Assembly: GCA_965200645.1 (NCBI GenBank) | Contig: CBDAUN010000002.1 | Span: 309,871-373,870 of the forward strand | DNA from: Arenicellales bacterium | Lineage (GTDB): Bacteria > Pseudomonadota > Gammaproteobacteria > Arenicellales > JAJDZL01 | DNA: 64,000 nt | Direction of reading: 5' to 3' | Shown: positions 627 through 56,733 of the stretch, in pieces | How positions within the stretch are numbered: position 1 is the stretch's first letter | How the letters are laid out: the number at the start of each line of letters is the position of its first letter | The notes under the pieces: generated by a model | The model's input: the letters and a program-made list of their open reading frames with translations, nothing else | The model's database searches: none | What the model was told of the DNA's origin: nothing | Made by a program: the position numbers and the translations under genes

Positions 627-1136
627 ATGACAAAAATAAATAATGTATGTGTAGGAGAGTCATTGGTCGGTGATGGCAATGAAGTCGCTCACATTGACTT
701 GATTATTGGTCCCCGCGGTTCAGCCGCCGAGTCCGCTTTCTGTAACAGTCTTTGTAACAACAAAGATGGATTTACCAGTCTACTGGCTGTAGCTTCACCC
801 AATGTTCCAGCGAAGCCAAATACAGTGATGTTCAATAAAGTTACCATGAAAGGTGCAAAGCAAGCTGTACAGATGTTTGGCCCGGCTCAAAGAGGTGTTG
901 CCATGGCAGTTATTGATAGTGTTGAAGACGGCACCATCCCTCAAGATGAAGCGGATGATTTGTTCGTTTGTGTCGGTGTGTTTATTCACTGGGAAGCAGA
1001 AGACGATGCAAAGATTCAAGACTACAACTACGAGGCAACTCGTGAAGCGATCCGACGTGCTGTTACCGGCAAGCCAAATGCAGCAGATGTTATCGCTCAA
1101 AAAGGAATCGAACATCCATTTGGCGCTCACGCTTAA
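627..1136 (+). CDS. fae: formaldehyde-activating enzyme (5,6,7,8-tetrahydromethanopterin hydro-lyase)
   Basis: 169 aa. It has long blocks typical of Fae: [79 protein letters not shown] Shine-Dalgarno lies 5 nt upstream of the ATG. Confidence 0.95.
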
Positions 1137-1309: not shown

Positions 1310-1702
1310 ATGTCAGACACTACCCCTGATCGTCGACTGGAAGAGACATTCGATGAAGCCACCATAGAACGAAGGCTTTCTGAGGAACTGCCGCACTGGT
1401 TTTACGAAAATGGCTGGATCCGAAGGAAATATCGCACTACTGGCTGGAAGAGCACATTAATGGTAATTAATACAGTGGGACACCTATCGGAAGCCGCTTG
1501 GCATCATCCCGACCTCGCTGCATCCTATGCATTCGTAGTCGTCAAGTTAATGAATCATGCAGCAAAGGGCATTACAGAAAAGGACTTTGCACTTGCGAAA
1601 AAGATTGAAGAGGTGGTGCAATGGCAACCCGGAGTCGAGGATGGTCCACTTGAAGGCACTCCTACAGATGCCCGATTCCGCTATGTCAAATACGATGGGT
1701 AA
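1310..1702 (+). CDS. pterin-4a-carbinolamine dehydratase (PCD/DCoH) family protein
   Basis: 130 aa. The core (WFYENGWIRRKYRTTGWKSTLMVINTVGHLSEAAWHHPDL...VKLMNH) matches the PCD fold signature (HHPD followed by a short strand). A GAGGAG SD lies upstream. Confidence 0.7.
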   Translation: MSDTTPDRRLEETFDEATIERRLSEELPHWFYENGWIRRKYRTTGWKSTLMVINTVGHLSEAAWHHPDLAASYAFVVVKLMNHAAKGITEKDFALAKKIEEVVQWQPGVEDGPLEGTPTDARFRYVKYDG

Positions 1703-1742
1703 TTGTTGTTCCAGGAAAATTTAGTTATTTAGTTGTGCTTTC

Positions 1743-3053
1743 ATGGCTCAAGGAACTAATGTACTTATCAATCTTGGATCAAATTTCGGTGATCGTAGAC
1801 AGAATCTCTACGACGGAATTCAACAAATTCAACAACTCGATTTTTCGGTCAATAAAATCTCGCCCGTAGTAGAGTCGCCAGCCTTGTTGCCAACCGGTTC
1901 CCCTTCTGAATGGAATCGTCCATTTCTGAATGTCAACTTACACGGGGTTGGAAATCTTGGAGTGGATGCATTCTATCGCTCTACCAAAAAAATTCAAAAG
2001 GAATACAAAAGGTATTGCGCTTCGAATTATTCGCCTCGCAGTCTTGACATTGACATTATTGCTTGGGGAGATGAGGTGGTTTCGCTAAATGGCAAGGAAT
2101 TACCAAACTCATCACTCCATACAAAATCCTTTGTAATGTCTCCTCTAGTGCACACTGCTCCAGAATTTGAGTTCGTTAACGCCAACAAAACTGCTTTCGA
2201 AATTAGTTGTTCTCAGTCGCTTCCGTATCACATTCCACTTTGGATGGGCATTGTAAACGTGACGCCTGATTCGTTTTCTGGCAACAAAGGTGATTTTGAG
2301 TTAACCAAGATTCAAGCAACCGTAGAAAAGATGATCAGTAGTGGGGTAAATATCATTGATGTCGGAGCTGAATCCACTAGACCTAATGCAACACCTTTAA
2401 GTGCAGAACAGGAGTGGAAAAGACTGGCAGGTGTGTTGGAGGTTGTCAAAGAGTCGCTAAGTAAATCACTGTTTCCACCTCGATTAAGCATAGATACCTA
2501 TCATCCGGAAACAGTTGAAAAGGCTTTAAAAGTCGGCATTGACATGGTAAATGACGTATCTGGATTGAGTAGTGGCAAAATGATCTCACTGGTTCGAGAA
2601 AGTAATGTTGAAGTTGTCGCAATGCACAGTGTGACTGTACCGGTAGATCCAATGGTTTCCATCGATGATTCGAAGGATGCTGTTGAATTCTATGAAAAGT
2701 GGCTACGAATTCAGCAAGACCGTTGGAGTCAGGCAAAACTCAATCTGGACCGAATTATTGTCGATCCCGGAATAGGGTTTGGTAAAAGCAGCTTGCAAGC
2801 CTTAGACTTGATGCGTTCCATATCTCGAATTCGAAAACTTGGGCAGCGGGTTCTAATCGGTCACTCACGCAAACGATTCTTGAAGTCGTTTGCCCAGCGA
2901 GAGAGTTCAGATCTGGATATGGAAACAGTTGCAACTTCCTTACATATGAGTTCTCAAAATGTGGATATTCTGCGCGTTCACGACGTTGAGAGTCATACGC
3001 GTGCCTACTTGAGTTATGCGCATCTGCTCAATCAGAGAATTGAATTGGAGTAG
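1743..3053 (+). CDS. bifunctional HPPK (6-hydroxymethyl-dihydropterin pyrophosphokinase) / dihydropteroate synthase fusion
   Basis: The N-terminal ~160 aa is FolK-like (INLGSNFGDRRQNL...FLNVNL...RSLDIDIIAWGD). The C-terminal ~270 aa carries every DHPS block: GIVNVTPDSFSG, IIDVGAESTRP, LSIDTYH, MVNDVSGL, VVAMHS, VDPGIGFGKS, IGHSRKRF, LRVHDV. Confidence 0.85.
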   Translation: MAQGTNVLINLGSNFGDRRQNLYDGIQQIQQLDFSVNKISPVVESPALLPTGSPSEWNRPFLNVNLHGVGNLGVDAFYRSTKKIQKEYKRYCASNYSPRSLDIDIIAWGDEVVSLNGKELPNSSLHTKSFVMSPLVHTAPEFEFVNANKTAFEISCSQSLPYHIPLWMGIVNVTPDSFSGNKGDFELTKIQATVEKMISSGVNIIDVGAESTRPNATPLSAEQEWKRLAGVLEVVKESLSKSLFPPRLSIDTYHPETVEKALKVGIDMVNDVSGLSSGKMISLVRESNVEVVAMHSVTVPVDPMVSIDDSKDAVEFYEKWLRIQQDRWSQAKLNLDRIIVDPGIGFGKSSLQALDLMRSISRIRKLGQRVLIGHSRKRFLKSFAQRESSDLDMETVATSLHMSSQNVDILRVHDVESHTRAYLSYAHLLNQRIELE

Positions 3054-3057
3054 TGGT

Positions 3058-3630
3058 TTAAGTTTGTGATTGCGATTTGTTGTCCCGAAATTTTGAAACT
3101 TCATCCAGTAACCACTCCCAAGCGATCAGTTCCCTTTGACCGGCAGTCTTGTCGATAGCGATCGACAAGTACTCCAGTTCAGAATCAATTTTCGTTTCCG
3201 AAAGCATCGATAGGCGACTAATTAAAATTGCCGCTTCAATAACCGCCGCCTGAGCACGATTAAACCCAGCGAAGGGTGCCATAGTCTTTGACTTAGTTTC
3301 TTGAAGGAACACTTTTGGCCGAAGAGCGTCATCTTCCATTTTACAAACTTGCAGTTCACGGAAGGCTAAAGCGCATTCTAATATCCTGCCGGGTACTGTA
3401 GTTGCCGGCACGGTAGGCCAATCAGTGCGCCCTGTTAGGCAACCAGCAAACACCCGCACATCATCCGTGAAATTCACCACTGCACAATGAGTGGAAAGGA
3501 GATTTGAAAGTGTTTGTGAGGGCTTGAATGGTGCAATGACGACCAACGAGTCCTGATAACGAATACCCATTGGAGCAATGTGTACAGAGCCTTCATCGTC
3601 CACTGTAGTGACGATGACTTCGTGAATCAT
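3058..3630 (-). CDS. DUF447-family protein (H4MPT-biosynthesis associated)
   Basis: 190 aa beginning MIHEVIVTT..DDEGSVHIAPMG. It overlaps the upstream DHPS-related gene by 4 nt. The family and its association with methanopterin clusters are recalled from knowledge, not searched. Confidence 0.55.
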   Translation of the reverse strand: MIHEVIVTTVDDEGSVHIAPMGIRYQDSLVVIAPFKPSQTLSNLLSTHCAVVNFTDDVRVFAGCLTGRTDWPTVPATTVPGRILECALAFRELQVCKMEDDALRPKVFLQETKSKTMAPFAGFNRAQAAVIEAAILISRLSMLSETKIDSELEYLSIAIDKTAGQRELIAWEWLLDEVSKFRDNKSQSQT

Positions 3631-5033
3631 GATTCGTCGTTCCTGCCTTTTTTCATCTCAGTGCTGACTGGTTTGTCGTATTCATTTGCAGGAAGATCTT
3701 CTGGCAAGATACCGCCCCAACTTAAATCCCGATCCTGTAAGTATCGTTTGCCCAAATGCCATGCAATTTGGGCTTTGGTCAATTCTGCACCAAGATAAAA
3801 GGCGTGTGACCCATCTTCTTCAACATTGAGGTTTGGAAATAGATCAAAAGGGTTGGTCGACACAAACAATCCGGCTCGATTAAAAATGTAGATTCCTTCT
3901 TCACCAACTCGAATTCTAAAACTGGGGTCTTTGATCATTTCAGCCAGTTCACGAATTTCCTCGTCCGAATCCGCAAAGGGTTTCTTTTCGTGTAGCGTAA
4001 TTAGACTTTCGTCAAATCCCTTCGGAATACTAGCATCCGATTTTGCCGCATACATCATTCTACGGGCCAAGTCGGTTTCTCTAATAACGGTATGCGCATG
4101 TTTGCTTACCTGTGTTGTCAAAACTGCCTTAGCATCAATTTCAGATACGATTCCCATGAGCAGCGCAGTCATACCGGTAGTATCTGCGTCGGTTAACTCC
4201 GTGAGGTTGCCAATACCAACCATAATGTCAATTTGAGGATATTTGGCTCTCAATTCATGATATTGAACAATGGATTGAGTAAATCCGAAGTGAATTGGCG
4301 TCAAAATTGAATCCGCCATGAATGCGTTTCCCTGTTCGAGCAAAGCATCAATCGCGCGATACAGTGATGGAATTCCATACTCCTCGTCTGGAATCAGAAT
4401 CGGAATACTGTCCGTTTCATCACAAATCCACAAAGTACTCTCCGTCAGACTCAGTAGGTAGTCTGCACCCGCATGAGCTCCGGTAAGTAGTTCAGCGCTA
4501 TTGAGTGAGTCAATACTGACGGCAAAGTCTTCAGTTTTCAGCGTTTCAATTGACTCTTTGAGATGTGTAAACTCAACTTCCGGCAGGGTGCCAACATCAA
4601 TCACATCCGCACCAGCTCGACGAAAGGCATAGGCTGCTTCGACGATTGCTTCCACACTCATATTCGGTGCGTCAACAATTTCGGCAAAAATTGACGCCGA
4701 GTAATTATCGAGAGAAATTTTGCGATTAGTCGAGCCGAAGTATTCCGGCAAATCCTTCAGCTCTTTAGGACCGCGGTCGACTGGAATTTGAAAGTGTTCG
4801 GACAAATCATCGGGGTCAAACGCACATAACCCAGGGAGTAACATTCGATCAAAATTTTCAACATTCTGCAATCGGCGCTTAATCATTTCACTAGTCATCA
4901 GAGCTGCAACGCTTACACCAAGTTGCCTAATCTCATAGGTGAACGCCTTGTCATCCAATGATTCGAGAATGCGCTGCAGATTGGTTTCTGCCAGTCGTCC
5001 AGTGAGAAAAAGGATTCGTTCTGGCATGGACAA
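3627..5033 (-). CDS. dihydropteroate synthase-related protein, archaeal MJ0107-like (methanopterin branch)
   Basis: 468 aa. The central pterin-binding barrel has signatures (GADVIDVG, SIDS, GIGNLTEL). The long N- and C-terminal extensions are typical of the DHPS-related proteins of H4MPT/methanopterin clusters. Confidence 0.7.
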   Translation of the reverse strand: MSMPERILFLTGRLAETNLQRILESLDDKAFTYEIRQLGVSVAALMTSEMIKRRLQNVENFDRMLLPGLCAFDPDDLSEHFQIPVDRGPKELKDLPEYFGSTNRKISLDNYSASIFAEIVDAPNMSVEAIVEAAYAFRRAGADVIDVGTLPEVEFTHLKESIETLKTEDFAVSIDSLNSAELLTGAHAGADYLLSLTESTLWICDETDSIPILIPDEEYGIPSLYRAIDALLEQGNAFMADSILTPIHFGFTQSIVQYHELRAKYPQIDIMVGIGNLTELTDADTTGMTALLMGIVSEIDAKAVLTTQVSKHAHTVIRETDLARRMMYAAKSDASIPKGFDESLITLHEKKPFADSDEEIRELAEMIKDPSFRIRVGEEGIYIFNRAGLFVSTNPFDLFPNLNVEEDGSHAFYLGAELTKAQIAWHLGKRYLQDRDLSWGGILPEDLPANEYDKPVSTEMKKGRNDES

Positions 5034-5145
5034 TTCTAGTTGCTGTGAATTTGTGTTCTACAGGTTTGAATTATTTCAATAATTCAACAACTTAAAACAA
5101 CTGCAGGTTGAGGAATTGAAGCGAGACTACGCAATTCACCAACAC

Positions 5146-5703
5146 TTAATTCTGCAAGCTGGCTATTCGGTCTTCAAGTGCCGTTTGCAAGTCGCCAACG
5201 TTTGTGACCAAAGTGGTGTCCTCAAACTCTCCAATTCTATGTGCACAATCTAAATCAATCTTTCGAGGGTAGACGGTCACCATTTTTCCCGGTGCTGGGG
5301 TGATTACCACCGGTTCGGTATCACAGGCATAAACAACAGCAGGAATTCGACACTTACCCGCTTGTGCAAAAACGTTAGTCACTAATGTGTCGGATATTCC
5401 CGCTACGCATTTTGCAACCGTATTGGATGTTGCAGGAGCAACGATCAATGTATGGTAATTTCCCTCATAAAACTGTCCCACAGGTACTGCACTGGCAGTG
5501 GAGTCGTGAAACATGCGAATACCGGCTTCCTTCAGTCGCTCCTTGTACTTGTACATGACCAGGACTTCTTCAACTGCACGACTCAAAAACAAGTCAACGT
5601 CGTCTAAAGTCATCAGGATATCCAAGCACTCCTTCAGGTCGTGACCTGATCCGGTCAAAGCCCATGCAATACGAGCATTTTCGTATTTGCGTGCCATATT
5701 CAA
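5146..5703 (-). CDS. flavoprotein of the AfpA/DmrB (HFCD-like) family, possible dihydromethanopterin reductase
   Basis: 185 aa. The flavodoxin-like N-terminus (RIAWALTGSGH) and the later PATSNTVAKCVAGISDTLVTN motif are typical of FMN-binding Flavoprotein-family members. It lies within the H4MPT island. Confidence 0.5.
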   Translation of the reverse strand: MNMARKYENARIAWALTGSGHDLKECLDILMTLDDVDLFLSRAVEEVLVMYKYKERLKEAGIRMFHDSTASAVPVGQFYEGNYHTLIVAPATSNTVAKCVAGISDTLVTNVFAQAGKCRIPAVVYACDTEPVVITPAPGKMVTVYPRKIDLDCAHRIGEFEDTTLVTNVGDLQTALEDRIASLQN

Positions 5704-5758: not shown

Positions 5759-7249
5759 TCATTTCTGCCACGAAAGCTCGGTTCTTATTTTCTTTTGCTT
5801 CTCCTTAACTCGTTCGGCTCTATAGAAGTCGTTTCCTGCAATATCTTCAGCAAGATTGAGTTGTTTCATAGCTGCATTCAACTGACCGTTCAAGTAGTAG
5901 TACTCAGCTGTAGAAAAGTGAACGTCAAATGCATCATTGGCTTGTGCTGATGCTCGAGCGTGCAGTTTGTGTAACCGAGGAATTTTAGGGTGATCGAGAA
6001 TTATTTTGCGCACGAGCCGCTTTGCTTCCTTTGCTTGTTTGGCGTCGAGCAAAATATTGGCGTATAGTTCAGCGAGAGAAAGGGATTGATTGAACTTAAG
6101 TGCGTTTTCAAGAATTTGCTTTGCAGATTCCGAATTGCCGCTGGCCAATTCTATTTCAGCGTTGGCAAGAATAAACCAAGTATTGTTCGGGTCTTTTGTT
6201 ATCAACTTTCCAATATTCTGTTGCGCCTCATCGTGTCTATTGTCTTTCGACAATGCGAGTGCAAGCCCGTATAAACCAGCATTGCCTTGATCTCCCTGGT
6301 CTACTTGTTCGACAAATGATGCGACGGTGGCGGACGGAACAAAGTTGTTCAGGACTGTAGATCTGGCTTTTGCCAGTTGGAAGTCGTTCGAGTCAGCATC
6401 ATAGTTTCTCCCTTCGTAAGCTCTTAGCCGGTTTTCAACATTAGCGATTCTTTCTGGTGTAAGTGGATGGGTGTTATGTATCGATGACTGTCGGGCACCT
6501 GCCAACCGAATCCACTGTTCCAAGGAATCCATAAAGTTCCTGGCCTGTCTTGGTTCAATATTGGATGCAGCAAGAATTCGAAGTGCAATAGCATCAGCTT
6601 CACGCTCAAAGTGTAGTGTATACCGAATAAGTGCATCCTTTTGCGCAGCAGCAGCCGTAACCGCCAATCCCAATCCTTCGCTTCCGCCAGCAATAAGGCC
6701 GCCCAACACTGCAATCATTGATGGGACAGCCAGGTCCTTCTGTCTTTCCATCATCTGTGGGAGATGTCTTTGGGTGTGGTGTGCGATTTCATGTGCGACG
6801 ACCGAAGCAAATTCTCCTTCTGTTGCTGCCAAATCGACAAGCCCAGTGAAAAACACAAATGTAGCACCCGGACCTGCCAGTGCATTGACTGCGTTATTGT
6901 CAACAATAATCACTCTGAAGTTGCTGGAGTCAAATCCTGCATTAGCCGCAAGTCGCTTTGCGAGCCCTGTAACATAATCCGATAGTTGCGGGTCTTCGAC
7001 AATCGTCATTTGTTCTCGAATGAGTTTTAGAAATTCTCTGGCTACGATTTCATCCTGAATCGTTGTCAGGACTGGTGCAACGTTTGGCTGGGCGTCAGGA
7101 AGTGGAACTTGACTTGCCCCTTTTGCAATTGATAAGCCAATCAAAATAAGCACAGCGATGACCACCAGGTAGGTAGGGTGTCTTAACTGCGTGAATCTAC
7201 AAAGCATGAAATAGACCGTTGAATAGTAATTGGGAGAGTGGAACGCCAA
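5759..7249 (-). CDS. periplasmic M48 zinc metalloprotease with C-terminal TPR repeats (BepA/YfgC-like)
   Basis: It has an HEIAHHTQRH (HExxH) motif, an N-terminal hydrophobic signal/anchor (YLVVIAVLILIGLSIAKG) and a TPR-like C-terminal half. The true start may be the internal Met at 7207. Confidence 0.8.
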   Translation of the reverse strand: MAFHSPNYYSTVYFMLCRFTQLRHPTYLVVIAVLILIGLSIAKGASQVPLPDAQPNVAPVLTTIQDEIVAREFLKLIREQMTIVEDPQLSDYVTGLAKRLAANAGFDSSNFRVIIVDNNAVNALAGPGATFVFFTGLVDLAATEGEFASVVAHEIAHHTQRHLPQMMERQKDLAVPSMIAVLGGLIAGGSEGLGLAVTAAAAQKDALIRYTLHFEREADAIALRILAASNIEPRQARNFMDSLEQWIRLAGARQSSIHNTHPLTPERIANVENRLRAYEGRNYDADSNDFQLAKARSTVLNNFVPSATVASFVEQVDQGDQGNAGLYGLALALSKDNRHDEAQQNIGKLITKDPNNTWFILANAEIELASGNSESAKQILENALKFNQSLSLAELYANILLDAKQAKEAKRLVRKIILDHPKIPRLHKLHARASAQANDAFDVHFSTAEYYYLNGQLNAAMKQLNLAEDIAGNDFYRAERVKEKQKKIRTELSWQK

Positions 7250-7429
7250 GCGTTCTAAGTATTTTACTCGCTGTTAGTATCCCTGAAGTTTCACCATGAC
7301 TTGTGATAGGAGCATAGGTTGAGACGAAACAGCGTGACATATAATTGAAACAACATGCTACTGATGCCCACAATGGCGTAAATTTTTTTTCATAGGTCGC
7401 AAGCGTCGCCATAAATCTGAAACAGATCA

Positions 7430-7822
7430 ATGAAGTTCAATATTTTGGTCAACGAAGGTCCCTATACTCATCAAGCTTCCGATACCGCCTATCAATTCGC
7501 GTATGCCGCCATCAATTCAGGACACGAAGTGGTGCAAGTCTTCTTTTATCACGATGGTGTCTACAATAGCACAAAGTTGAGTGTACCCCCCATAGATGAT
7601 CGCGATATTGTCAAGCGATGGGTAGCGTTTGCCGAAGACCACGGCGTTAAATTGAACGTGTGTGTAGCGGCAAGTCAACGTAGGGGAATTCTTGATTCAT
7701 CCGAAGCAAGGCGTCACGCACGGGATTCGGATAATGTGGATAGTCAATTTCACATTACCGGCATTGGACAATTTATAGAAGGTGCGATTGTTGCTGATCG
7801 AACGATTGTGTTCGGCGACTGA
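7430..7822 (+). CDS. dsrE: DsrE/TusD family sulfurtransferase subunit
   Basis: 130 aa. MKFNILVNEGPY...FFYHDGV...LNVCVAASQRRGI contains the conserved active-site Cys context of DsrE/TusD. It is the first gene of an E-F-H-C series. Confidence 0.85.
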   Translation: MKFNILVNEGPYTHQASDTAYQFAYAAINSGHEVVQVFFYHDGVYNSTKLSVPPIDDRDIVKRWVAFAEDHGVKLNVCVAASQRRGILDSSEARRHARDSDNVDSQFHITGIGQFIEGAIVADRTIVFGD

Positions 7823-7843
7823 GCCAGGATAGGTTTTGAAGCA

Positions 7844-8236
7844 TTGAACAGTATCTCAAAAAGAATTATCTTCGTATTTCGGCGGGCTCCGTATGGAACA
7901 ATCTATGCTCAAGAAGCATTGGATATGCTAATGACAGGTGCTGCATTTGATCAAATTGTGTGCCTGGCATTTCTTGATGACGGCGTCTTTCAACTAAAGC
8001 GAGGACAAAGCCCACAAGTCATTGGAATGAAGCACTATTCTCGAGCATTCGGAGCGCTTGGTGACTTCGAAGTGACCAGTGTTTTTGTCGAGCTAGAGTC
8101 GCTAAAAACCCGTGGATTGAATCAGTCTGATCTCATCGAAATAAACGATGAAGATGACAAAAACATGGTTAAAGTCATTCCAACAATCGAATTGGCAACT
8201 GTTATGAATGAACAAGACATAGTCCTTCAGGTTTGA
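7844..8236 (+). CDS. dsrF: DsrF/TusC family sulfur-relay subunit
   Basis: 130 aa with a TTG start. IIFVFRRAPYGT...AFDQIVCLAFLDDGV is typical of DsrF/TusC, and it sits between the E and H subunits. Confidence 0.8.
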   Translation: MNSISKRIIFVFRRAPYGTIYAQEALDMLMTGAAFDQIVCLAFLDDGVFQLKRGQSPQVIGMKHYSRAFGALGDFEVTSVFVELESLKTRGLNQSDLIEINDEDDKNMVKVIPTIELATVMNEQDIVLQV

Positions 8237-8242
8237 AGAATT

Positions 8243-8545
8243 ATGCTTCACACTGTTAACAAGTCCCCAAATGAAAAACTCAGTTTGATGAGTTGTCTAA
8301 GGCTTGCGACTCCTGGAAGTGACATTCTACTCATCGAAGATGGTGTCTATGCCAGCCTATCCGGAGCGGCGATGGCGCCAATGATGCACGAAGCAGTAGA
8401 AAAGTTTTCTGTATACGTACTGGAACCCGATCTTACGGTTCGAGGGTTGCAGTCATCTGCAATTGTTGATGGCATTTCAAAAATTGACTATGCAGGGTTT
8501 GTTTCGCTCGCTGTTCAGAATCAAAGCATACAGTCTTGGCTATAA
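8243..8545 (+). CDS. dsrH: DsrH/TusB family sulfur-relay subunit
   Basis: 100 aa. MLHTVNKSP...SCLRL...DILLIEDGVY matches the DsrH/TusB pattern, including the N-terminal Cys. Confidence 0.8.
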   Translation: MLHTVNKSPNEKLSLMSCLRLATPGSDILLIEDGVYASLSGAAMAPMMHEAVEKFSVYVLEPDLTVRGLQSSAIVDGISKIDYAGFVSLAVQNQSIQSWL

Positions 8546-8551
8546 CCACTC

Positions 8552-8884
8552 ATGGCTATAGAATTCAACGGAAAAGTCTACGAAACTGACGAAGAAGGTT
8601 TTCTTCAGGTTCCGGAGGAATGGAGCGTGGAACTCGCCGCAAAGATGGCGACCGATGATGGTTGCGAGTTAACGCCGGATCACTGGACTGCAATCAACAT
8701 TCTCCGAGACTACTACGCACAGTACGCAATTGCCCCTCCCGTTCGAATTCTAGTACGTCATATGGGGAAGCAATTGGGAAAGGAAAAGGCTAATAGCCCG
8801 TATCTTTATGAGTTGTTTCCATTTGGTCCAGCCAAGCAAGCATGTCGTTATGCCGGGCTTCCAAAACCGACGGGTTGCATTTGA
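8552..8884 (+). CDS. dsrC: DsrC-type sulfur carrier protein with both C-terminal redox cysteines
   Basis: 110 aa. The C-terminus is ...GPAKQACRYAGLPKPTGCI, with a penultimate Cys (codon 8876-8878) and a second Cys ten residues away (codon 8843-8845), giving CX10C. As I recall it, E. coli TusE has Thr at the upstream position. Confidence 0.85.
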   Translation: MAIEFNGKVYETDEEGFLQVPEEWSVELAAKMATDDGCELTPDHWTAINILRDYYAQYAIAPPVRILVRHMGKQLGKEKANSPYLYELFPFGPAKQACRYAGLPKPTGCI

Positions 8885-8896
8885 ATCAGGTCGCAA

Positions 8897-9628
8897 TTGT
8901 CCTGTGAGGGGGAGTGGGATTTGAGTTTCTTATTGGGTTTTTCCATTGCGGTTTTAACCTACTTGGCATTGCTTATATTTGTCGTCGGAGTAGTACTTCG
9001 AATAGTTAAGTACTTTCGAACCCCATCCAAATTTCTTCTGCCAATCTTTCCAGCTCCTGCAACAAGAACTGGAGTTGTCTTGCGAGTCCTTCGAGAGGTA
9101 TTCTTATTTGAAAGTCTTTTTCGCGCAAGCAAGTGGACTTGGCTGTTTGGATGGCTCTTTCATGTTGCATTGTTTGTCGTGCTGTTGCGGCACTTGTTTT
9201 TCATTGTCGATCCCGTTTGGGATTGGGTTATATGGTTGTTTCCCTACGGCGACCTTGCCGCAGCAATGATGTTGTTTGGTTTACTGGGTCTTTCAGCAAG
9301 AAGATTTCTAGTTGATCGCATTCGCTACATTTCGACACCATCTGATCACCTAATGCTTCTTCTTTTAGTCGTAATTTGCGTCAGTGGATTGCTGTTGGCC
9401 AACGTGACTTTTGTGGACCTGTCAGCCGTGCGGAACTACGCTCTTGGATTGCGCGTTTTGCAGATTAATGAACTACCAACTTCGTTGGTGCTGAACATTC
9501 ATTTAAGCAGTGTCATACTGCTAGTGGTAATCTTTCCTTTCAGTAAATTGATGCATTTTATAGCTCCTGTATTTAGTCCCCCGCATACTCAAACTAACAC
9601 TCCTAGCAGTACTAGCCGTGGCAGCTGA
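8897..9628 (+). CDS. dsrM: DsrM, NarI-like membrane dihaem cytochrome b subunit
   Basis: 243 aa with about 5 predicted TM helices and conserved His residues (FHVALFVVLLRH, PSDHLM, KLMHF). It lies directly upstream of dsrK and overlaps it by 11 nt. Confidence 0.75.
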   Translation: MSCEGEWDLSFLLGFSIAVLTYLALLIFVVGVVLRIVKYFRTPSKFLLPIFPAPATRTGVVLRVLREVFLFESLFRASKWTWLFGWLFHVALFVVLLRHLFFIVDPVWDWVIWLFPYGDLAAAMMLFGLLGLSARRFLVDRIRYISTPSDHLMLLLLVVICVSGLLLANVTFVDLSAVRNYALGLRVLQINELPTSLVLNIHLSSVILLVVIFPFSKLMHFIAPVFSPPHTQTNTPSSTSRGS

Positions 9629-11051
9629 CCTGCAATCGAAGCCATTGACAGAAAGGGCCTCAGCCGACTCAAAGCCTTACTTCGGACAAACTGCAAGTGA
9701 GGCAAATCTGGTAGACGGCTGGAAGGATATTGCTATTGCCGAATTGGGTAAACAAGTCGAGTCCAATCGAGCACTACAGGTTTTTCTAGATTCCTGCGTG
9801 AAATGTGGAGCATGCACCGACAAGTGCCACTACTATCTTGGTGGAGGTGATCCGAAAAATATGCCTGTTGCACGGCAGGACTTGATTCGAGGTGTCTACC
9901 GTCGTCATTTCACCCTCAGCGGAAAATACTTTCCGAATCTAGTTGGCGCACTCGAATTAAGTGAACAACTGATTGAAGACTGGAGTACTTACTACTATCA
10001 GTGTTCACAGTGCAGACGCTGTTCCGTCTATTGCCCCTTTGGAATTGATACAGCAGAAGTTACGATGGCTGCAAGATCAATCCTGAACAAAATCGGCCTT
10101 AAGCAGCGCTACATCCACTCAGTCATCGACAAAGTACACAAAGTCGGCAACAATCTCGGTATGCCTGCTGAGGCGATAGTGGATACCTTGCAGGCATTGG
10201 AAGAAGAGGTCAAGGAAGATACTGATGTTGATGTCAGGTTTCCGATCGACGAACCCAATGCAGAAGTTTTACTAGTCGTCCCATCAGCAGATTTTTTTGC
10301 TGAACCTCATGTCGACGGTTTAATTGGAATTGCGAAGATTTTTCACCAGGTTGGTGTGTCTTGGACTTTGAGTTCGGAAGCATCTGAAGCAGCCAATTTT
10401 GGAATTTTCGTTGGTGACCAGGATCAGATGCAAAAGATCGCACAACGAATTTGGATGGCTGCAAAAGACCTTTCCGTTAGCGAAGTAGCTATTGGAGAGT
10501 GTGGTCATGCTTGGCGAGTCGCTAGCAACTATTGGGAACAACTGAGTACCAATTCAAATTCAGCTTGGTTGGCACCGACACGACACATTTGTGAAGTAAC
10601 TCATGGATTATTGGGTGAAAACCGACTCAAGCTTGACCGCTCAGTTCACTCGGACAAGGTCATTACATTTCACGATTCGTGCAATATCGCCCGCGGTTCT
10701 CGAATGGGTAGTCATCCAAATGATGTATTCAGAATACCAAGAGATTTGTTATACGCTTCCTGCGAACAATTCGTAGATATGTCCAAAAACACCATAAAGC
10801 AGTACACCCTTTGTTGCGGAGGAGGGGGCGGATTATTGACTGATGAGTTGATGAAAATTAGGATAGCAGGTGCTACACCAAGACTAAATGCCTTGGAAGA
10901 AGTGATTGCAAATCATGGTGTGACTCACATGGCAGCCATCTGCGCGATTTGCAAGAGTCAGTTTCGAACAGTTTTGCCGAAATTTGGTTTGGGAATGGAG
11001 ATAATCGTCAGCCTGCATCAAATTGTTGGAGATGCGGTGGTTTTGAAGTGA
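9618..11051 (+). CDS. dsrK: DsrK, HdrD-like iron-sulfur / CCG-domain catalytic subunit
   Basis: 477 aa with a GTG start. It has two ferredoxin-type motifs (CVKCGACTDKC, CSQCRRCSVYCP) and CCG-domain signatures (CGHAW..., HDSCN, LCCGGGGG). Confidence 0.85.
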   Translation: MAADLQSKPLTERASADSKPYFGQTASEANLVDGWKDIAIAELGKQVESNRALQVFLDSCVKCGACTDKCHYYLGGGDPKNMPVARQDLIRGVYRRHFTLSGKYFPNLVGALELSEQLIEDWSTYYYQCSQCRRCSVYCPFGIDTAEVTMAARSILNKIGLKQRYIHSVIDKVHKVGNNLGMPAEAIVDTLQALEEEVKEDTDVDVRFPIDEPNAEVLLVVPSADFFAEPHVDGLIGIAKIFHQVGVSWTLSSEASEAANFGIFVGDQDQMQKIAQRIWMAAKDLSVSEVAIGECGHAWRVASNYWEQLSTNSNSAWLAPTRHICEVTHGLLGENRLKLDRSVHSDKVITFHDSCNIARGSRMGSHPNDVFRIPRDLLYASCEQFVDMSKNTIKQYTLCCGGGGGLLTDELMKIRIAGATPRLNALEEVIANHGVTHMAAICAICKSQFRTVLPKFGLGMEIIVSLHQIVGDAVVLK

Positions 11052-11194: not shown

Positions 11195-11716
11195 ATGAGT
11201 GGAGTTACATCAGAATTAAAACCAGGTGGAGAAAGTTATCGGCCAAACGTAGGAATAATCCTATGCAAAAGAAATGGTGAAGTACTTATAGCGCGAAGAA
11301 TCAACCATGATGGTTGGCAGTTTCCTCAGGGCGGTATTGGGCGCAACGAAACATCTCACGAAGCAGCCTATCGTGAACTAAACGAAGAACTAGGTCTCGA
11401 AAAATCTCACGTTCGTCTGATGGGTTCAACCAAGAACTGGTTGAAATACGACATACCCGAAAAATTTCTCAATAGACGCTACAACGAGAACTATCGAGGG
11501 CAGATTCAGAAGTGGTTTCTCTTTGAGTTTATTGGTACAGAATCAGATTTTTGCCTGCATCTTTCGCCAAAACCAGAATTCGATGATTGGAAGTGGGTTG
11601 AATATTGGAGTCCCGTCGAAAGTGTCGTTCGATTTAAACGACATGTCTATCAGGATGCATTGGCAGAATTGGAACAGTATCTTCTATTGCTCAAAAACAA
11701 ATTAGTTCAAGCCTAA
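11195..11716 (+). CDS. rppH: RNA pyrophosphohydrolase (Nudix)
   Basis: 173 aa. YRPNVGIIL...WQFPQGGI..ETSHEAAYRELNEELGL gives the Nudix box plus an RppH-specific N-terminus. Confidence 0.9.
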   Translation: MSGVTSELKPGGESYRPNVGIILCKRNGEVLIARRINHDGWQFPQGGIGRNETSHEAAYRELNEELGLEKSHVRLMGSTKNWLKYDIPEKFLNRRYNENYRGQIQKWFLFEFIGTESDFCLHLSPKPEFDDWKWVEYWSPVESVVRFKRHVYQDALAELEQYLLLLKNKLVQA

Positions 11717-11878: not shown

Positions 11879-11952
11879 GCGGGTGTAGTTCAATGGTAGA
11901 ACTTCAGCTTCCCAAGCTGGTAACGTGGGTTCGATTCCCATCACCCGCTCCA
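11879..11952 (+). tRNA. tRNA-Gly (anticodon CCC)
   Basis: Cloverleaf folded by hand. Acceptor stem GCGGGTG/CACCCGC; D arm GTTC-AATGGTA-GAAC; anticodon stem TCAGC/GCTGG with loop TTCCCAA (CCC); T arm GTGGG-TTCGATT-CCCAT; encoded CCA. Confidence 0.93.
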
Positions 11953-15805: not shown

Positions 15806-16155
15806 AGAGTTGGTCGGGCAATCGCTTGCCTTTTAGGCGGGAGGAAAGTCCGGGCTCCACAGGGCAGAGTGCCAGGTAACGCCTGGGCGGCGTAAGCCGA
15901 CGGAAAGTGCCACAGAAAAAATACCGCCTGTGATTTACAGGTAAGGGTGAAATGGTGCGGTAAGAGCGCACCGCATTTGCGGTAACGTGAATGGCAGGGC
16001 AAACCCCACTTGGTGCAAGATCGAATAGGAGTCGAATGACGTTGCCCGCGTCCGACTCGGGTAGATCGCATGAGATGCGTGGTGACGCGTATCCCAGATA
16101 AATGGTTGCCGCCATTCAACCGAATGGTACAGAACCCGGCTTATAGGCCAACTCT
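15806..16155 (+). ncRNA. rnpB: RNase P RNA, bacterial type A
   Basis: Universally conserved blocks are visible: GGAGGAAAGTCCGGGCTCCACAGGGCAGAGTGCCAGGTAACGCCTGGG, GGAAAGTGCCACAGAAAAAATACCGCC, GGTAAGGGTGAAA and ACAGAACCCGGCTTATAGGCC. P1 pairs AGAGTTGG(T)C at the 5' end with GGCCAACTCT at the 3' end. The ends are approximate to within a few nt. Confidence 0.95.
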
Positions 16156-16387
16156 TTCTTCATCTCACTCCTTCCTTGCTTGTTCCATCCCGTCTCGCTG
16201 CGGATTTGAATCGCGAATTCATATTCAAGCCAATTCTACCGTTTCAACATAGTTCGTTCAGAGCATTAACCCATTTGCAGTTTTAAGCATGTTGCACACA
16301 TGCAACAAAATCATCCGAACTAAACGGTTCGACGAGTGTATTATTGAAATCGACTTCGAGTTATGGCAATTTCTTAGTAAAAAAGTT

Positions 16388-38175: not shown

Positions 38176-39432
38176 ATGAAGAAGTATTCAATATTTTCAT
38201 TGGTACGCAATGCTGCTACAAGGCATAAGAATTGGCGCCCTGTATGGCGCTATCCTGATCCGAAGCCTGCATATGACGTCATCATCATTGGTGGTGGCGG
38301 ACACGGACTCGCGACTGCTTACTATCTCGCAAAACTGCACGGAATTTCCAATATTGCAGTTCTCGAAAAAGGTTGGCTTGGTGGCGGAAATACCGGCAGA
38401 AACACTACTATTGTTCGATCGAATTATTTACTGGATGCAAACGCACAGTTTTACGAACACTCCATGAAGTTGTGGGAGGGACTTTCACAGGAACTGAATT
38501 ACAACGTCATGTTCTCGCAGCGGGGAGTTTTAAATTTGGCTCATAGCGATGCCGAAATGGACGCGTTTGCGATTCGAGGCAATGCAATGCGCTTTAATGG
38601 GATTGATGCGCAGTTGTTACTGCCGGATCAAATCCGGCGCATGGTTCCGCATTTGGATTGCTCTAAACAGACCAGGTATCCAATTTTTGGCGGACTATTG
38701 CAGCCACGAGGCGGTACCGCCCGCCACGATGCTGTTGCTTGGGGATATGCCCGTGCAGCAGATGCATGTGGTGTCGACATCATTCAAAATTGTGAAGTTA
38801 CTGGTATCAGTGTCAAGAACAATCGAGTTGTAGGTGTTGCTACAACACAAGGTGTGATTCGTGCAGATAAAGTTGGTCTTGCGGTAGCCGGCAACAGCGG
38901 CAGGGTTGCGGGAATGGCTGGATTGAAACTACCCATCGAGTCACACGTGTTGCAAGCAATGGTGACAGAACCGTTGAAGCCAATCATTGACACAGTGGTT
39001 ACCTCCGGTGCATCCCATGTCTACATCAATCAGACGGATAAGGGAGAAGTGCTGTTCGGTGGTGACTTGGATTTTTATAACTCCTACGCTCAAAGAGGTA
39101 ATTTCCCTCGAATTGAATATGTAGTCCAGTCGGTCCTAACTTTATTCCCATGCCTTAGTCGAGTGCGATTAATGCGCACCTGGGGTGGGGTGATGGACAT
39201 GTCCATGGATGGCAGCCCTATCATTGGCAAATCACCGATTGATCATTTGTATCTCAATACGGGATGGTGCTATGGGGGATTCAAGGCCACTCCGGGTTCG
39301 GGCTGGTGTTTTGCCCACACAATTGCCAATGACAAGTCACATCAGTTCAACGAAGCATTTACGCTCGAACGCTTTAGAGAGGGTCGTGTGCTAGACGAAA
39401 AGGGTGGCGGTGCCCTGCCGAAAGTGCATTAG
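38176..39432 (+). CDS. soxB: heterotetrameric sarcosine oxidase family, beta subunit
   Basis: 418 aa with an FAD dinucleotide fold (YDVIIIGGGGHGLATAYYLA) and strong SoxB-like blocks (GGNTGRNTTIVRSNY, the HVYINQTDKGE region). Confidence 0.85.
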   Translation: MKKYSIFSLVRNAATRHKNWRPVWRYPDPKPAYDVIIIGGGGHGLATAYYLAKLHGISNIAVLEKGWLGGGNTGRNTTIVRSNYLLDANAQFYEHSMKLWEGLSQELNYNVMFSQRGVLNLAHSDAEMDAFAIRGNAMRFNGIDAQLLLPDQIRRMVPHLDCSKQTRYPIFGGLLQPRGGTARHDAVAWGYARAADACGVDIIQNCEVTGISVKNNRVVGVATTQGVIRADKVGLAVAGNSGRVAGMAGLKLPIESHVLQAMVTEPLKPIIDTVVTSGASHVYINQTDKGEVLFGGDLDFYNSYAQRGNFPRIEYVVQSVLTLFPCLSRVRLMRTWGGVMDMSMDGSPIIGKSPIDHLYLNTGWCYGGFKATPGSGWCFAHTIANDKSHQFNEAFTLERFREGRVLDEKGGGALPKVH

Positions 39433-39453
39433 TAAAAAAATGAGAGAGTTGAG

Positions 39454-39729
39454 ATGCTGTTGATTCCTTGTCCATGGTGCGGCGAACGGGCGCAAATCGA
39501 ATTTACTTACCATGGTGATGCAACAGTCGAACGACCATCCTTGGATGCTTCGGATAACGAGTGGTACGACTATGTTTTCACTCGCGATAATCCTCGAGGT
39601 GAACATACAGAGTGGTGGCATCACACGGCTGGATGTCGGCAGTGGATCAAGGTGAAGCGTAACACTATGACACACAAGATATCCGGTGCACAGCCGGCAG
39701 TCAGTAGCGAAGCGGACTCTTTGGAATGA
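39454..39729 (+). CDS. soxD: sarcosine oxidase family, delta subunit
   Basis: 91 aa. MLLIPCPWCGERAQIEFTYHGDA...EWWHHTAGCRQW is the typical zinc-ribbon delta-subunit signature. Confidence 0.88.
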   Translation: MLLIPCPWCGERAQIEFTYHGDATVERPSLDASDNEWYDYVFTRDNPRGEHTEWWHHTAGCRQWIKVKRNTMTHKISGAQPAVSSEADSLE

Positions 39730-42722: not shown

Positions 42723-42735
42723 GGCGAACAGTAGC

Positions 42736-43245
42736 ATGCAAATTTCGTTAAATGAAAGAATTGCTGGTTCTTTATTTCAGTTACACGGGCTACAGGAAGG
42801 CAACTGTGATCAGTTCATTAAAGAATTTGAATTCGAGCAACTGCCCGATATTGGAAAGTCAGTGGCTACATCGCTTGCAGTTCTGATGTGGAATGGTCCA
42901 GGGATGTGGATGTTGGAGTGCAAATTAGACTCACCCGATAGAACCGCAAAGAAGTTAACCAAGATATTTGACACTACCGAAATCTCTATAGTTGACTTAT
43001 CATCGGCGCGAACCATTATTCAGGTAACCGGTAAGATGGCCTCAAGACTGATAAAAAAGGGTAGTCCTGTAGACATTGATTCGCTTGAGGTGAATTCTGT
43101 TGTTTCTACTCTGATTGGTCATACGAGTGTCTTGATTCATTATCACGATGAATTGAGTTATGACATTTATGTGATGCAAACCTTCGGAACAGACTTTTGG
43201 CATTGGTGTGCGTATAACGCAGCAGAGTTTGGCTTCAAAAGATGA
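42736..43245 (+). CDS. soxG: sarcosine oxidase family, gamma subunit
   Basis: 169 aa from ATG 42736 (MQISLNERIAGS...). It is the last gene in the B-D-A-G order, with size and position typical of the gamma subunit. The 42673 start in the ORF track overlaps soxA and is unlikely. Confidence 0.7.
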   Translation: MQISLNERIAGSLFQLHGLQEGNCDQFIKEFEFEQLPDIGKSVATSLAVLMWNGPGMWMLECKLDSPDRTAKKLTKIFDTTEISIVDLSSARTIIQVTGKMASRLIKKGSPVDIDSLEVNSVVSTLIGHTSVLIHYHDELSYDIYVMQTFGTDFWHWCAYNAAEFGFKR

Positions 43246-43300
43246 CAGATGAGCAAAATTTAGCGAAGCGCTTTGTATTCAAAATGAAATAGTTTCTGCC

Positions 43301-43750
43301 ATGCGTGTTTTTCTGTATTCAATTTGGTTGCCGATTGCGGTCCTCGTTATTTTTGTAATGAGGGCGACCGTCTTTGGAACAGTTGACTCCAGACTAATTG
43401 AAGACTTTCTGTCAATCAGCAATCTTCTTTACCTGTTTGCTGTCACTTGGCCGTGCGGGCTACCACTTACCTTTGTGTTGATGAGACTACATCGACACAG
43501 TCGAATTGCGACAGGAATTCTGATCGTTCTGCTCGTTCCGCTGTCTGGCCTGTTTGCAATGTATGGTGGATTGTTTGGTCCGTTTGGAACCTTAATTTAC
43601 TCAGCGTCAGCATCTATTCCGGCATGGGTAGTTTGGGGAATTTATGCACTTTTAGAATATCGCCGCCGACCGGATGTGACTGATGATATAGATGAACTGA
43701 AAGCCTTACCGGATGAATCAAAAGGCCGAAAACAAAAACTTTTAAAATGA
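43301..43750 (+). CDS. small integral membrane protein, unknown function
   Basis: 149 aa with about 4 hydrophobic helices and a charged C-terminal tail (RRRPDVTDDIDELKALPDESKGRKQK). I recognise no family. Confidence 0.5.
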   Translation: MRVFLYSIWLPIAVLVIFVMRATVFGTVDSRLIEDFLSISNLLYLFAVTWPCGLPLTFVLMRLHRHSRIATGILIVLLVPLSGLFAMYGGLFGPFGTLIYSASASIPAWVVWGIYALLEYRRRPDVTDDIDELKALPDESKGRKQKLLK

Positions 43751-49591: not shown

Positions 49592-50080
49592 ATGGAAATC
49601 ACAGGAACTAAAGAACTGCCGGTATCTCGAAAGGAAGTTTGGGATGCACTGCATAATGAGCAGTTGCTATGCTCTTTAATCAAAGGCTGCGAATCTCTTG
49701 AATGGACTTCAGACTCAACACTGGAAGGGGTAGTTACGGCAAAATTCGGACCCGTCAAGGCAAAGTTTCTTATTGACATGGCAATTAGTAACTCAATTCA
49801 ATACGAAAGTTACACAATGACTGGTGAGGCAAAATCCAAAGCACAAGGTTTTGCTGGAGGTGCAGCTGATGTCCAACTTGCCGATTCGAATGGTGGTTGC
49901 GAACTATCCTATCAAGCTGAATTCAAAATTGGTGGAAAGATCGCTCAATTGGGTTCGCGTTTGATGAGTAGCGCGAGTCGAAAGATTATTGACAGTTTCT
50001 TTGATAGATTAACTGAAGCTTTGTCGCCCGAATCTACGGATGAATCAGAATCTTCAGATTCTGATCAAAATCTCACTTGA
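49592..50080 (+). CDS. coxG: CoxG-family SRPBCC protein
   Basis: 162 aa. MEITGTKELPVSRKEVWDALHN...FGPVKAKF...GGKIAQLGSRLM matches the CoxG pattern. The acidic Ser-rich tail is unusual. Confidence 0.75.
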   Translation: MEITGTKELPVSRKEVWDALHNEQLLCSLIKGCESLEWTSDSTLEGVVTAKFGPVKAKFLIDMAISNSIQYESYTMTGEAKSKAQGFAGGAADVQLADSNGGCELSYQAEFKIGGKIAQLGSRLMSSASRKIIDSFFDRLTEALSPESTDESESSDSDQNLT

Positions 50081-50433
50081 GATTACCACAATCTAGAATT
50101 TCAAGGCGCAGACATCCAGCGGCTCCAAAGCGACCACATCTATCACTTTGATTGGGTGACGGTGCCCACAGTGTCATCCATGCAGTAGATTTCTAGTGAC
50201 TTAAAATTATGGTTTTGGTTCGCCAACCAATGCGGAAGTGAACCCTCTGCGATAGAGTCTCTAAGGCGTTTGAAATTAAAACTCAGTGACAAAACTATAT
50301 AGTTCATAGTGTAAACTTTAAACTAGGATGGCCTTGTTCATTCAATAATGTGTTTCGACAACTAAATGCATATGAATGACGAGGACACTTATATAGGCAA
50401 GAGTACATATACGTAGATGGAGGATTGAAATAC

Positions 50434-50907
50434 ATGAGTGTGGATGTATCAATGACAATCAATGGCCAACAGGTTTCTGCCACGGTGGATTCCCGCACCT
50501 TGCTTGTTGAATTTCTGCGCGAAAATCAACGGTTGACCGGCACTCACGTCGGTTGCGATACAAGTCAATGTGGTGCCTGCGTCGTGCATGTTAATGGTAG
50601 TTCTGTCAAGAGTTGCACACTGCTTGCAGCTCAAGTTGATGGTGCCGAAGTTGCCACAATTGAAGGTTTGGCAAGCAATGGCAACCTGCATCCAATGCAG
50701 GAAGCGTTTCGAGACAATCACGGACTGCAATGTGGATTTTGCACCCCGGGGATGATTATGAGTGCCTTGGATTTGGTCAGCCGTAATTCGGACCCATCTG
50801 AGGCCGATGTTCGCGAATGGCTAGAAGGCAATCTTTGCCGGTGTACGGGTTATCACAATATTGTGAAATCCATTCAGGCTGGCGCAGCCGCAATGAGGGA
50901 GGGATAA
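50434..50907 (+). CDS. coxS: molybdenum hydroxylase small subunit, [2Fe-2S] (CoxS-like)
   Basis: It has two 2Fe-2S motifs ([12 protein letters not shown] and [11 protein letters not shown] ... CRCTGY). ATG 50434 is preferred over TTG 50425, with GGAGG 12 nt upstream. Confidence 0.9.
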
Positions 50908-50909
50908 AA

Positions 50910-53270: not shown

Positions 53271-53288
53271 ATATAGAGGAAAAGTTTT

Positions 53289-54089: not shown

Positions 54090-54187
54090 ATATTCGGCTG
54101 CCGAACTGACATCAACTTTGATCGACAGGTACTCAACCAAATCGGTTGGGTACCTGCGGTACTCTACCTAAATTACCCGATCGAGTT

Positions 54188-56714: not shown

Positions 56715-56733
56715 AGCAATCTACGTTGGTTCG

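Follow-up and report, generated by a model that had tools for sequence, protein, structure and literature searches.

A stand-alone dsrEFHCMK unit in an Arenicellales genome

The window analyzed here is a stretch of 64,000 nucleotides from an Arenicellales bacterium (assembly GCA_965200645.1, contig CBDAUN010000002.1, positions 309,871 to 373,870). At 7430-11051 it contains six genes running in one direction, which open reading frame (ORF) listings and NCBIfam and Pfam profiles identify as dsrE-dsrF-dsrH-dsrC-dsrM-dsrK (Table 1). The genes are separated by spacers of 21, 6, 6 and 12 nt, followed by an 11-nt overlap of dsrM and dsrK at 9618-9628. An original prediction, made from the letters of the sequence, had proposed these six identities together with the tight co-directional packing and the overlap, and the ORFs and profiles bear it out on each of these points. 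The unit is an arrangement of familiar proteins that is conserved and phylogenetically distinct, and that stands without the enzyme they are thought to serve, the sulfite reductase DsrAB.

The predicted proteins retain the residues on which sulfur relay and electron transfer depend in characterized Dsr systems. DsrE, which is 58% identical to its Thiocystis counterpart, has the active-site Cys78 found in 13/13 stand-alone and 55/55 full-operon loci. Likewise, DsrH has the cysteine equivalent to Cys20 of Allochromatium vinosum DsrH (13/13 and 57/57 loci, respectively), which is a leucine in Escherichia coli TusB. DsrC ends in ...QACRYAGLPKPTGCI, that is CysB-X10-CysA, and contains the AGLPKPTGC motif (as defined in PMC8477390). 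Both of its cysteines are present in all 13 stand-alone loci and in 33/33 more distant DsrC relatives (<70% identity), whereas E. coli TusE has a threonine at the CysB position. The four heme ligands of DsrM (His 89, 99, 202 and 220 of the ORF) are likewise kept in 13/13 stand-alone loci; its score of 93 bits lies below the NCBIfam DsrM cut-off of 300, which a bona fide oxidative DsrM (168 bits) also misses. DsrK exceeds the equivalog cut-off of 400 with 513 bits and carries a pair of [4Fe-4S] motifs of the ferredoxin type, the non-cubane cluster's CCG domain and the cysteine of a GECGH motif. All 16 of these cysteines (the eight of the ferredoxin motifs, those of the CCG domain and that of GECGH) occur in 13/13 stand-alone loci, the last being the conserved non-ligating catalytic cysteine (PMC10861901; bioRxiv 10.64898/2026.08.25.746951).

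The tblastn alignment of Thiocystis DsrF from 7844 onward supports the long form of dsrF in the window; for dsrM, a gene caller offers an alternative start at 8921. Upstream of dsrE a sigma-70-like match lies at 7345-7374, such matches being no commoner than in shuffled sequence, and a TAAAAT-like -10 element is found 60-90 nt before dsrE in most stand-alone loci. No common operator motif is visible upstream of dsrE across these loci, and promoter and terminator scans gave results no better than shuffled sequence.

Conservation of the unit in related genomes

We compared 84 loci against the full reference operon, represented by the Dsr proteins of Thiocystis violacea, counting the dsr genes within 10 kb. 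The closest relatives of the window DsrK (64-72% identity) form about 35 clusters that are separated from the next matches at <=62%. The same E-F-H-C-M-K unit was recovered from the window and from 15 other distinct loci (L001/L002, L003-L014, L087/L088); in none of these 16 stand-alone loci do the surrounding 10 kb contain dsrA, B, L, J, O, P, N or R. Each of the 70 remaining DsrK loci, in contrast, has dsrAB and/or dsrL(JOP) adjoining dsrK as far as the available sequence reaches. Most of these 70 present the complete run dsrAB-EFHCMK-LJOP(N)(R), and where the sequence extends far enough, dsrJ, dsrO and dsrP follow dsrK in nearly all full loci. Their hosts are alpha-, beta- and gammaproteobacterial sulfur oxidizers, including other Arenicellales.

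The window and L001-L014 are labeled as Arenicellales or unclassified Gammaproteobacteria; L087 and L088, reached via a DsrC search, come from sponge metagenomes, as does most of the clade. The stand-alone genomes include at least ten species-level representatives, and several are closed chromosomes of 3-4.4 Mb (closed genomes with the unit are OZ244730.1, OZ253563.1, OY762925.1, OY282380.1, OZ220493.1 and ERZ25070917 ctg125712). An M48 protease gene lies upstream in every stand-alone locus whose gene table was read. The window, L001 and L002 further agree in having this protease on one side and NUDIX, BON, LppC, rsmI and mraZ genes on the other, while other genes intervene between dsrK and the NUDIX gene in L003/L004 and follow dsrK in L087/L088. 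The six genes have been passed on together, in a single chromosomal location.

In five close genome pairs the ratio of nonsynonymous to synonymous substitution rates (dN/dS) is 0.02-0.19 for all six genes, and none of the six contains an internal stop. Apparent internal stops in two extracted proteins proved to be an artefact of alignments that ran past the true stop codon. Intact genes, retained catalytic residues and low dN/dS together indicate that the unit is maintained by selection.

In public annotations the unit is often incompletely called: dsrM is missing at L003/L004:9265-10001 and reduced to an 86-aa stub in L087/L088 (L087:6897-7631), and dsrF of L001 (592-984) is cut to 101 aa, which removes the conserved N-terminus. 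The TTG starts of dsrM and dsrF in the window may explain such missed or truncated calls. As a consequence, surveys of predicted proteomes with hidden Markov models (HMMs) would under-report the unit.

Phylogenetic position of the stand-alone proteins

In neighbor-joining (NJ) trees the stand-alone sequences are monophyletic for each of the six proteins. With E. coli Tus as sole outgroup, their clade is sister to all 54-57 sampled full-operon DsrE, DsrF and DsrH sequences. The NJ tree of DsrK included 14 outgroup representatives of reductive, Gram-positive and more distant types. It gives 100/100 bootstraps each to the stand-alone clade, to the full-operon clade excluding it, and to both together. 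Mean DsrK distances to the outgroups are almost equal for the two clades (1.31 versus 1.28), making it unlikely that the unit is a recent, fast-evolving offshoot of the Arenicellales reverse dissimilatory sulfite reductase (rDsr) operon. The sequences thus point to a clade of their own, sister to all sampled proteobacterial oxidative-type Dsr proteins; this is a good working result rather than a settled one, the NJ trees being built on a query-biased sample. The suggestion that the block might be a translocated piece of an rDsr operon is accordingly unlikely to hold for any recent event. Similar units were sought in Methylococcaceae, Marinobacter or Halomonas, to which PMC3397948 and PMC9237845 had pointed. 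An exhaustive search of representatives yielded no full-length DsrK cluster between 43% and 58% identity, the cluster at 43% (P0129) being of the Chloroflexota/Firmicutes type, and the plasmid collection gave a single, irrelevant match.

DsrM substitutions and the comparison with DsrMK-only complexes

The stand-alone clade departs from other DsrM proteins next to the distal-heme histidine. The residue two positions after this histidine is arginine in 66/66 DsrM proteins of the DsrMKJOP type and phenylalanine or tyrosine in 13/13 stand-alone ones. Gln106 is changed to phenylalanine in 12/13 of the latter, and the otherwise invariant Pro97 is kept in just 10/13. By homology with NarI, the substituted residues would be located where helix 2 ends on the periplasmic side and in the loop that follows, a region used by NarI for quinol binding and by DsrM for contact with DsrJ. 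A 2026 preprint reports an open quinol site in DsrM of MK-only complexes and an occluded one in the DsrMKJOP type, arginines blocking it in reducers and a helix break caused by a proline doing so in proteobacterial oxidizers (bioRxiv 10.64898/2026.08.25.746951). The changes would fit a complex that lacks DsrJ and handles quinone by itself.

Such an architecture recalls the DsrM-1 type of Gram-positive, Chloroflexota and archaeal sulfite/sulfate reducers, which also consists of two subunits without DsrJOP and in which DsrM itself probably handles quinone. The original prediction had drawn this comparison with the Gram-positive layout, and it holds for the architecture but not for the proteins. 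DsrK of that type is 41-43% identical to the stand-alone DsrK and falls in the outgroup, the clusters P0128 and P0129 (relatives of Chloroflexota, Moorella and Desulfitobacterium proteins) being placed outside the clade of stand-alone and oxidative DsrK with 100/100 bootstraps. Moreover, unlike the stand-alone unit, the DsrMK of these reducers is partnered with reductive DsrAB and has no type I DsrEFH.

Dsr-type relay or Tus equivalent

DsrEFH and DsrC are homologous to TusBCD and TusE of E. coli, in which no sulfite reductase is involved. This raises the question of whether the unit relays sulfur to MnmA for the synthesis of tRNA 2-thiouridine, with DsrMK as an accessory that would maintain a suitable redox state of the two-cysteine carrier or draw off surplus sulfane sulfur. 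The equivalents of TusD-Cys78 and TusE-Cys108 are indeed present, the neighbors include housekeeping genes (an rppH-like gene and the dcw cluster), one related locus has dsrEFHC without dsrMK (L091, described below), and at some positions the stand-alone DsrC reads as E. coli TusE does (e.g. IRxLV, terminal Ile). DsrE and DsrF also exceed the NCBIfam equivalog cut-offs for TusD and TusC, but so do bona fide DsrE and DsrF of Thiocystis and of an Arenicellales sulfur oxidizer. Further, the cut-offs for TusB (NF010035; 65 < 104 bits) and TusE (NF008562; 118 < 191 bits) are not reached. As bona fide DsrE, DsrF, DsrH and DsrC give the same pattern of scores, NCBIfam cannot separate Dsr from Tus and was dropped as a discriminator.

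The sequences themselves are more informative. Identity is higher to Dsr than to E. coli Tus: 48-59% against 35-47% for the unit proteins and 48-57% against 35-40% for the DsrEFH subunits, with values of 57-59% against 40-47% also among the comparisons. DsrH-Cys20 and DsrC-CysB, invariant in the clade, are missing in E. coli (Leu and Thr). E. coli TusE ends in ...PVKCI, with VKC where the unit has the TGC motif together with both cysteines; no DsrMK is attached to the E. coli set, and its tusE is unlinked from tusBCD. TusE-type carriers have CysB replaced by Ala, Ser or Thr, and CysB is normally confined to organisms with DsrAB, being usually replaced where DsrAB is absent, with exceptions in Methylococcaceae, Marinobacter and Lawsonia (PMC3397948). 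On this sequence evidence DsrH-Cys20, DsrC-CysB and the PTGC motif mark the unit as Dsr-type and not TusBCD/TusE, in agreement with the earlier view that it differs from a plain tusDCB-tusE set, a view to which the presence of dsrMK also lends weight. With dsrMK in addition kept under strong purifying selection in 15/16 loci, we consider a Tus-equivalent main function unlikely, a contribution to tRNA thiolation being conceivable.

The unit also shows the signature of DsrEFH type I, namely contiguous paralogous subunits E, F and H with DsrE-Cys78 and DsrH-Cys20 (both cysteines in 13/13 loci), whose functional role has been described (PMC3397948). Genomes with dsrEFH type I have oxidative dsrAB in 75.9% and reductive dsrAB in 2.4% of cases; about 22% have no dsrAB, a remainder that is not discussed in that study (PMC13293266). 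No oxidative-type dsrAB lies beside dsrEFH within 10 kb in the 16 stand-alone loci or anywhere in the 64-kb window.

Genomic context in the window

The flanks foreseen for the unit, a divergent M48 protease gene on the left and rppH on the right, are those we find, the latter being a NUDIX gene of rppH-like type (Table 1). Beyond it follow, in the downstream direction, a tRNA gene, BON, LppC and rsmI genes, the RNase P RNA gene and the mraZ/dcw cluster. A tblastn search with DsrA, B, L, J, O, P, N, R and S of Thiocystis violacea gave no match in the window, in line with the original prediction that dsrAB, dsrL, dsrJOP and dsrN are absent in cis. The same holds for its picture of a heterotrophic, one-carbon (C1) context: the Fae and tetrahydromethanopterin (H4MPT) genes, sarcosine oxidase and cox genes are all present, and we found no sulfur gene in the 64 kb beyond the dsr unit.

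Genes of the H4MPT pathway lie just past the M48 protease in several genomes of the clade (window:627-5703, L003:1700-5926, L087:1321-3817), the set comprising Fae, a pterin-4a dehydratase, HPPK/pterin-binding, DUF447 and DUF6513 proteins and a flavoprotein. Elsewhere in the window, right after the sarcosine oxidase alpha gene, two ORFs of 190 and 149 aa at 42673-43750 are without a Pfam match at E <= 1e-5 and could encode small sarcosine oxidase subunits or other proteins.

Table 1. The dsr unit and further features of the 64-kb window (positions in the window)
Feature	Position	Strand	Remarks
Intergenic region upstream of dsrE	7250..7429	+	Separates dsrE from the divergent M48 protease gene; likely site of the promoter of the unit
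dsrE, TusD/DsrE sulfurtransferase subunit, 130 aa	7430..7822	+	TIGR03012, 153 bits; Pfam DsrE
dsrF, TusC/DsrF subunit, 130 aa	7844..8236	+	TTG start; TIGR03010, 102 bits
dsrH, TusB/DsrH subunit, 100 aa	8243..8545	+	TIGR03011, 93 bits; Pfam DsrH
dsrC, two-cysteine sulfur carrier, 110 aa	8552..8884	+	TIGR03342 (DsrC/TusE family), 144 bits
dsrM, NarI-like di-heme b membrane subunit, 243 aa	8897..9628	+	TTG start; Pfam Nitrate_red_gam, 48 bits; NCBIfam DsrM, 93 bits
Clade-specific substitutions of DsrM	9170-9245		Residues about 92-116, next to the distal-heme His
dsrK, cytoplasmic HdrD-like catalytic subunit, 477 aa	9618..11051	+	GTG start; NCBIfam DsrK equivalog, 513 bits
Fae	627-1136		Upstream of the unit
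H4MPT-related genes	1310-5703		Upstream of the unit
M48 protease with TPR	5759-7249		Divergent; left flank of the unit
NUDIX protein, rppH-like	11195-11716		Right flank of the unit
tRNA gene	11879-11949		Downstream of the dsr unit, ahead of the mraZ/dcw cluster
Class A RNase P RNA	15806-16159		338 bits; likewise downstream of the dsr unit and ahead of mraZ/dcw
Sarcosine oxidase beta and alpha	38176-42722		
CoxS/L/M and CoxG/D/E/F-like genes	49592-59048		

A proposed DsrAB-independent sulfur module and the alternatives

From the conserved sequence features, the best explanation of the unit, to which we would assign a probability of roughly 45%, is that it constitutes a DsrAB-independent sulfur module, in which DsrEFH would load DsrC and DsrMK would couple the DsrC cysteines to the quinone pool. 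Nothing required for the "front half" of the oxidative Dsr pathway is missing, all of its parts are intact and under purifying selection, and the combination of relay and DsrMK parts without DsrAB, DsrL and DsrN favors a cycle that is independent of DsrAB. DsrEFH passes sulfane sulfur from DsrE-Cys78 to CysA of DsrC (PMC3397948), and DsrMK(JOP) connects quinol with the DsrC trisulfide, electrons moving by way of the DsrM hemes and the DsrK non-cubane cluster (PMC10861901). In the module proposed here, TusA, a rhodanese or a desulfurase would supply the sulfane sulfur bound as a protein persulfide, and organosulfur catabolism of the host, e.g. of cysteine, methanethiol/dimethylsulfoniopropionate or sulfide, is its plausible origin. 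DsrE-Cys78 of DsrEFH would take up this sulfur and hand it over to CysA of DsrC, whose C-terminal arm would dock on DsrK, and DsrM itself would meet the quinone pool, DsrJOP being absent. Ubiquinone is the quinone of most aerobic Gammaproteobacteria, and an oxidative direction has been proposed for DsrMKJOP in sulfur oxidizers. If ubiquinone is used, oxidation would be thermodynamically favored, and electrons would pass from DsrC-bound sulfur or thiols to the quinone. The link between DsrC and quinone without DsrAB that the original prediction had envisaged stands as the most natural reading of the unit; which way the electrons run and where the sulfur ends up are matters of speculation.

It is conceivable that the module runs in the reductive direction instead. 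DsrEFH would again load DsrC with sulfane sulfur, and quinol-driven DsrMK would then reduce the persulfide, trisulfide or disulfide of DsrC with release of H2S, serving as a cytoplasmic sulfane-sulfur reductase for detoxification, or for anaerobic respiration in anoxic phases of the sponge. The only demonstrated activity of DsrMK(JOP) is in fact quinol:DsrC-trisulfide reduction with sulfide release (PMC10861901), and quinol oxidation at DsrM has been proposed for MK-only complexes. However, going by established redox potentials this direction would be strongly uphill with ubiquinol, the proteins group with the oxidative and not the reductive type, and PMC13293266 ties DsrEFH type I to the oxidation of sulfur; we therefore regard it as quite improbable.

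Several points weigh against a DsrAB-independent module or against parts of it. DsrAB is the enzyme that makes or consumes the DsrC trisulfide, and both it and its partners DsrL and DsrN are missing from the unit. To our knowledge no enzyme discharges the DsrC trisulfide without DsrAB, which leaves the catalytic cycle without a closing step on paper. The interpretation of the DsrM substitutions draws on homology to NarI and on a preprint. At L091:2671-4143, dsrE-F-H-C is found without dsrMK downstream, with rpiA following on the opposite strand, in a scaffold that has runs of N. The DsrC of this locus, 72% identical to that of the window, has both cysteines and is nested in the stand-alone clade, which implies that EFHC has value without MK in cis. 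Sequence coverage came to about 21 kb for each related genome and 64 kb for that of the window, so that dsrAB, dsrL and dsrJOP may lie beyond. In favor of the module, none of the five single-chromosome stand-alone genomes has a second DsrK locus among the 80 best hits listed.

Broken dsr operons add to the points against the module, as they are seen in related sponge-associated lineages. A "Ca. Porisulfidus" metagenome-assembled genome (MAG) has dsrABEFHCMK and lacks dsrL, J, O and P over the following 10 kb (L064:4978-11428), which demonstrates that split dsr operons do exist in such lineages. Five Arenicellales / "Ca. Poriferihabitaceae" MAGs (L025, L061, L068, L071 and L084, at about 7650-8900, the dsrB-dsrC region) have dsrAB-C-MK-LJOPN and no dsrEFH in cis, a partial layout opposite to that of the window. 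In a full-type Arenicellales chromosome (OY843749.1; L057:3012-9484) about 6.9 kb separate dsrM from dsrK. This insert consists of a proline-rich repetitive ORF and an ORF of 1443 aa that by eye resembles a helicase/methyltransferase restriction enzyme.

These layouts bring up a split rDsr pathway, in which dsrAB, along with dsrL, dsrN and possibly dsrJOP, would reside elsewhere in the genome and the unit would feed ordinary oxidation of sulfur to sulfite. Consistent with it, besides the reach of the survey, the gene order E-F-H-C-M-K matches exactly that of the operon dsrABEFHCMKLJOPNRS of A. vinosum (PMC3368242) and other proteobacterial oxidizers. Every residue needed for an rDsr role is also kept: DsrE-Cys78, DsrH-Cys20, CysA and CysB of DsrC, the DsrK clusters and the DsrM heme ligands are alike, at 45-59% identity. 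Yet the unit is without dsrAB, L, J, O, P, N, R and S in cis. Of the set A, B, L, J, O, P and N, no gene comes within 10 kb in any of the 16 stand-alone loci, and at least a part adjoins dsrK in 70/70 other loci, a contrast that speaks against such a pathway. The stand-alone clade is sister, in all six trees, to the sampled alpha-, beta- and gammaproteobacterial oxidative-type sequences and lies outside them, rather than being nested in the rDsr of Arenicellales. Its DsrM has lost the arginine and glutamine near the distal heme that are invariant in the DsrMKJOP type, in keeping with a complex without DsrJ, and the 64-kb context is heterotrophic/C1-type. On these grounds a split pathway appears unlikely to us.

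A further proposal goes beyond the module itself and concerns its history. If these Arenicellales have no DsrAB at all, their dsrEFHCMK could represent an old, independent lineage, and be either a surviving intermediate in the assembly of the pathway or a distinct respiratory module; we put this forward tentatively, as a possible but rather doubtful extension. In the first case a Tus-like relay would have joined DsrMK before, or without, a sulfite reductase. In the second, a protein-bound sulfur carrier would be oxidized directly at the membrane, and electrons of organosulfur-derived sulfane sulfur would reach the quinone pool of an aerobic, probably sponge-associated heterotroph.

A parallel for coupling of this kind is offered by HdrDE of methanogens. 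DsrK and DsrM are homologous to HdrD and HdrE, both pairs combining a di-heme b subunit with a CCG-domain subunit, and both couple a membrane-soluble carrier (quinone for DsrMK) to thiol/disulfide chemistry (PMC10861901). They differ in that the substrate of HdrDE is the heterodisulfide CoM-S-S-CoB whereas that of DsrMK is the protein carrier DsrC, and in that DsrK has a single CCG/non-cubane site.

Implications

We found no published description or functional assignment of a stand-alone dsrEFHCMK unit, which, as far as the search reached, speaks against identical six-gene units having already been documented; the string dsrEFHCMK occurs in the literature searched solely within full operon names. 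A large survey was limited to DsrAB-containing genomes (PMC10504309), and a marker-gene survey treated Dsr proteins without DsrAB as false positives (PMC8477390). Papers on sponge-associated Arenicellales report full rDsr operons (PMC12625764) or no dsr genes (PMC10356861), and the supplementary tables of the "Ca. Taurinisymbion" and DsrEFH type II papers contain nothing on this clade. Automated surveys will under-report the unit, as dsrM and dsrF are often missed or truncated by gene callers.

DsrC and DsrMK are regarded as accessories of dissimilatory sulfite reductase. The stand-alone unit suggests that they have a job independent of it: a conserved and selected unit without adjoining dsrAB would show that the DsrC/DsrMK redox couple is able to serve another purpose. 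It would also be a minimal natural system for DsrMK in the oxidative direction, a step so far inferred in sulfur oxidizers, and would give a sulfur-handling trait to a clade known mostly from sponge metagenomes. Finally, the unit bears on the assembly of the oxidative Dsr pathway out of Tus-like and Hdr-like parts.

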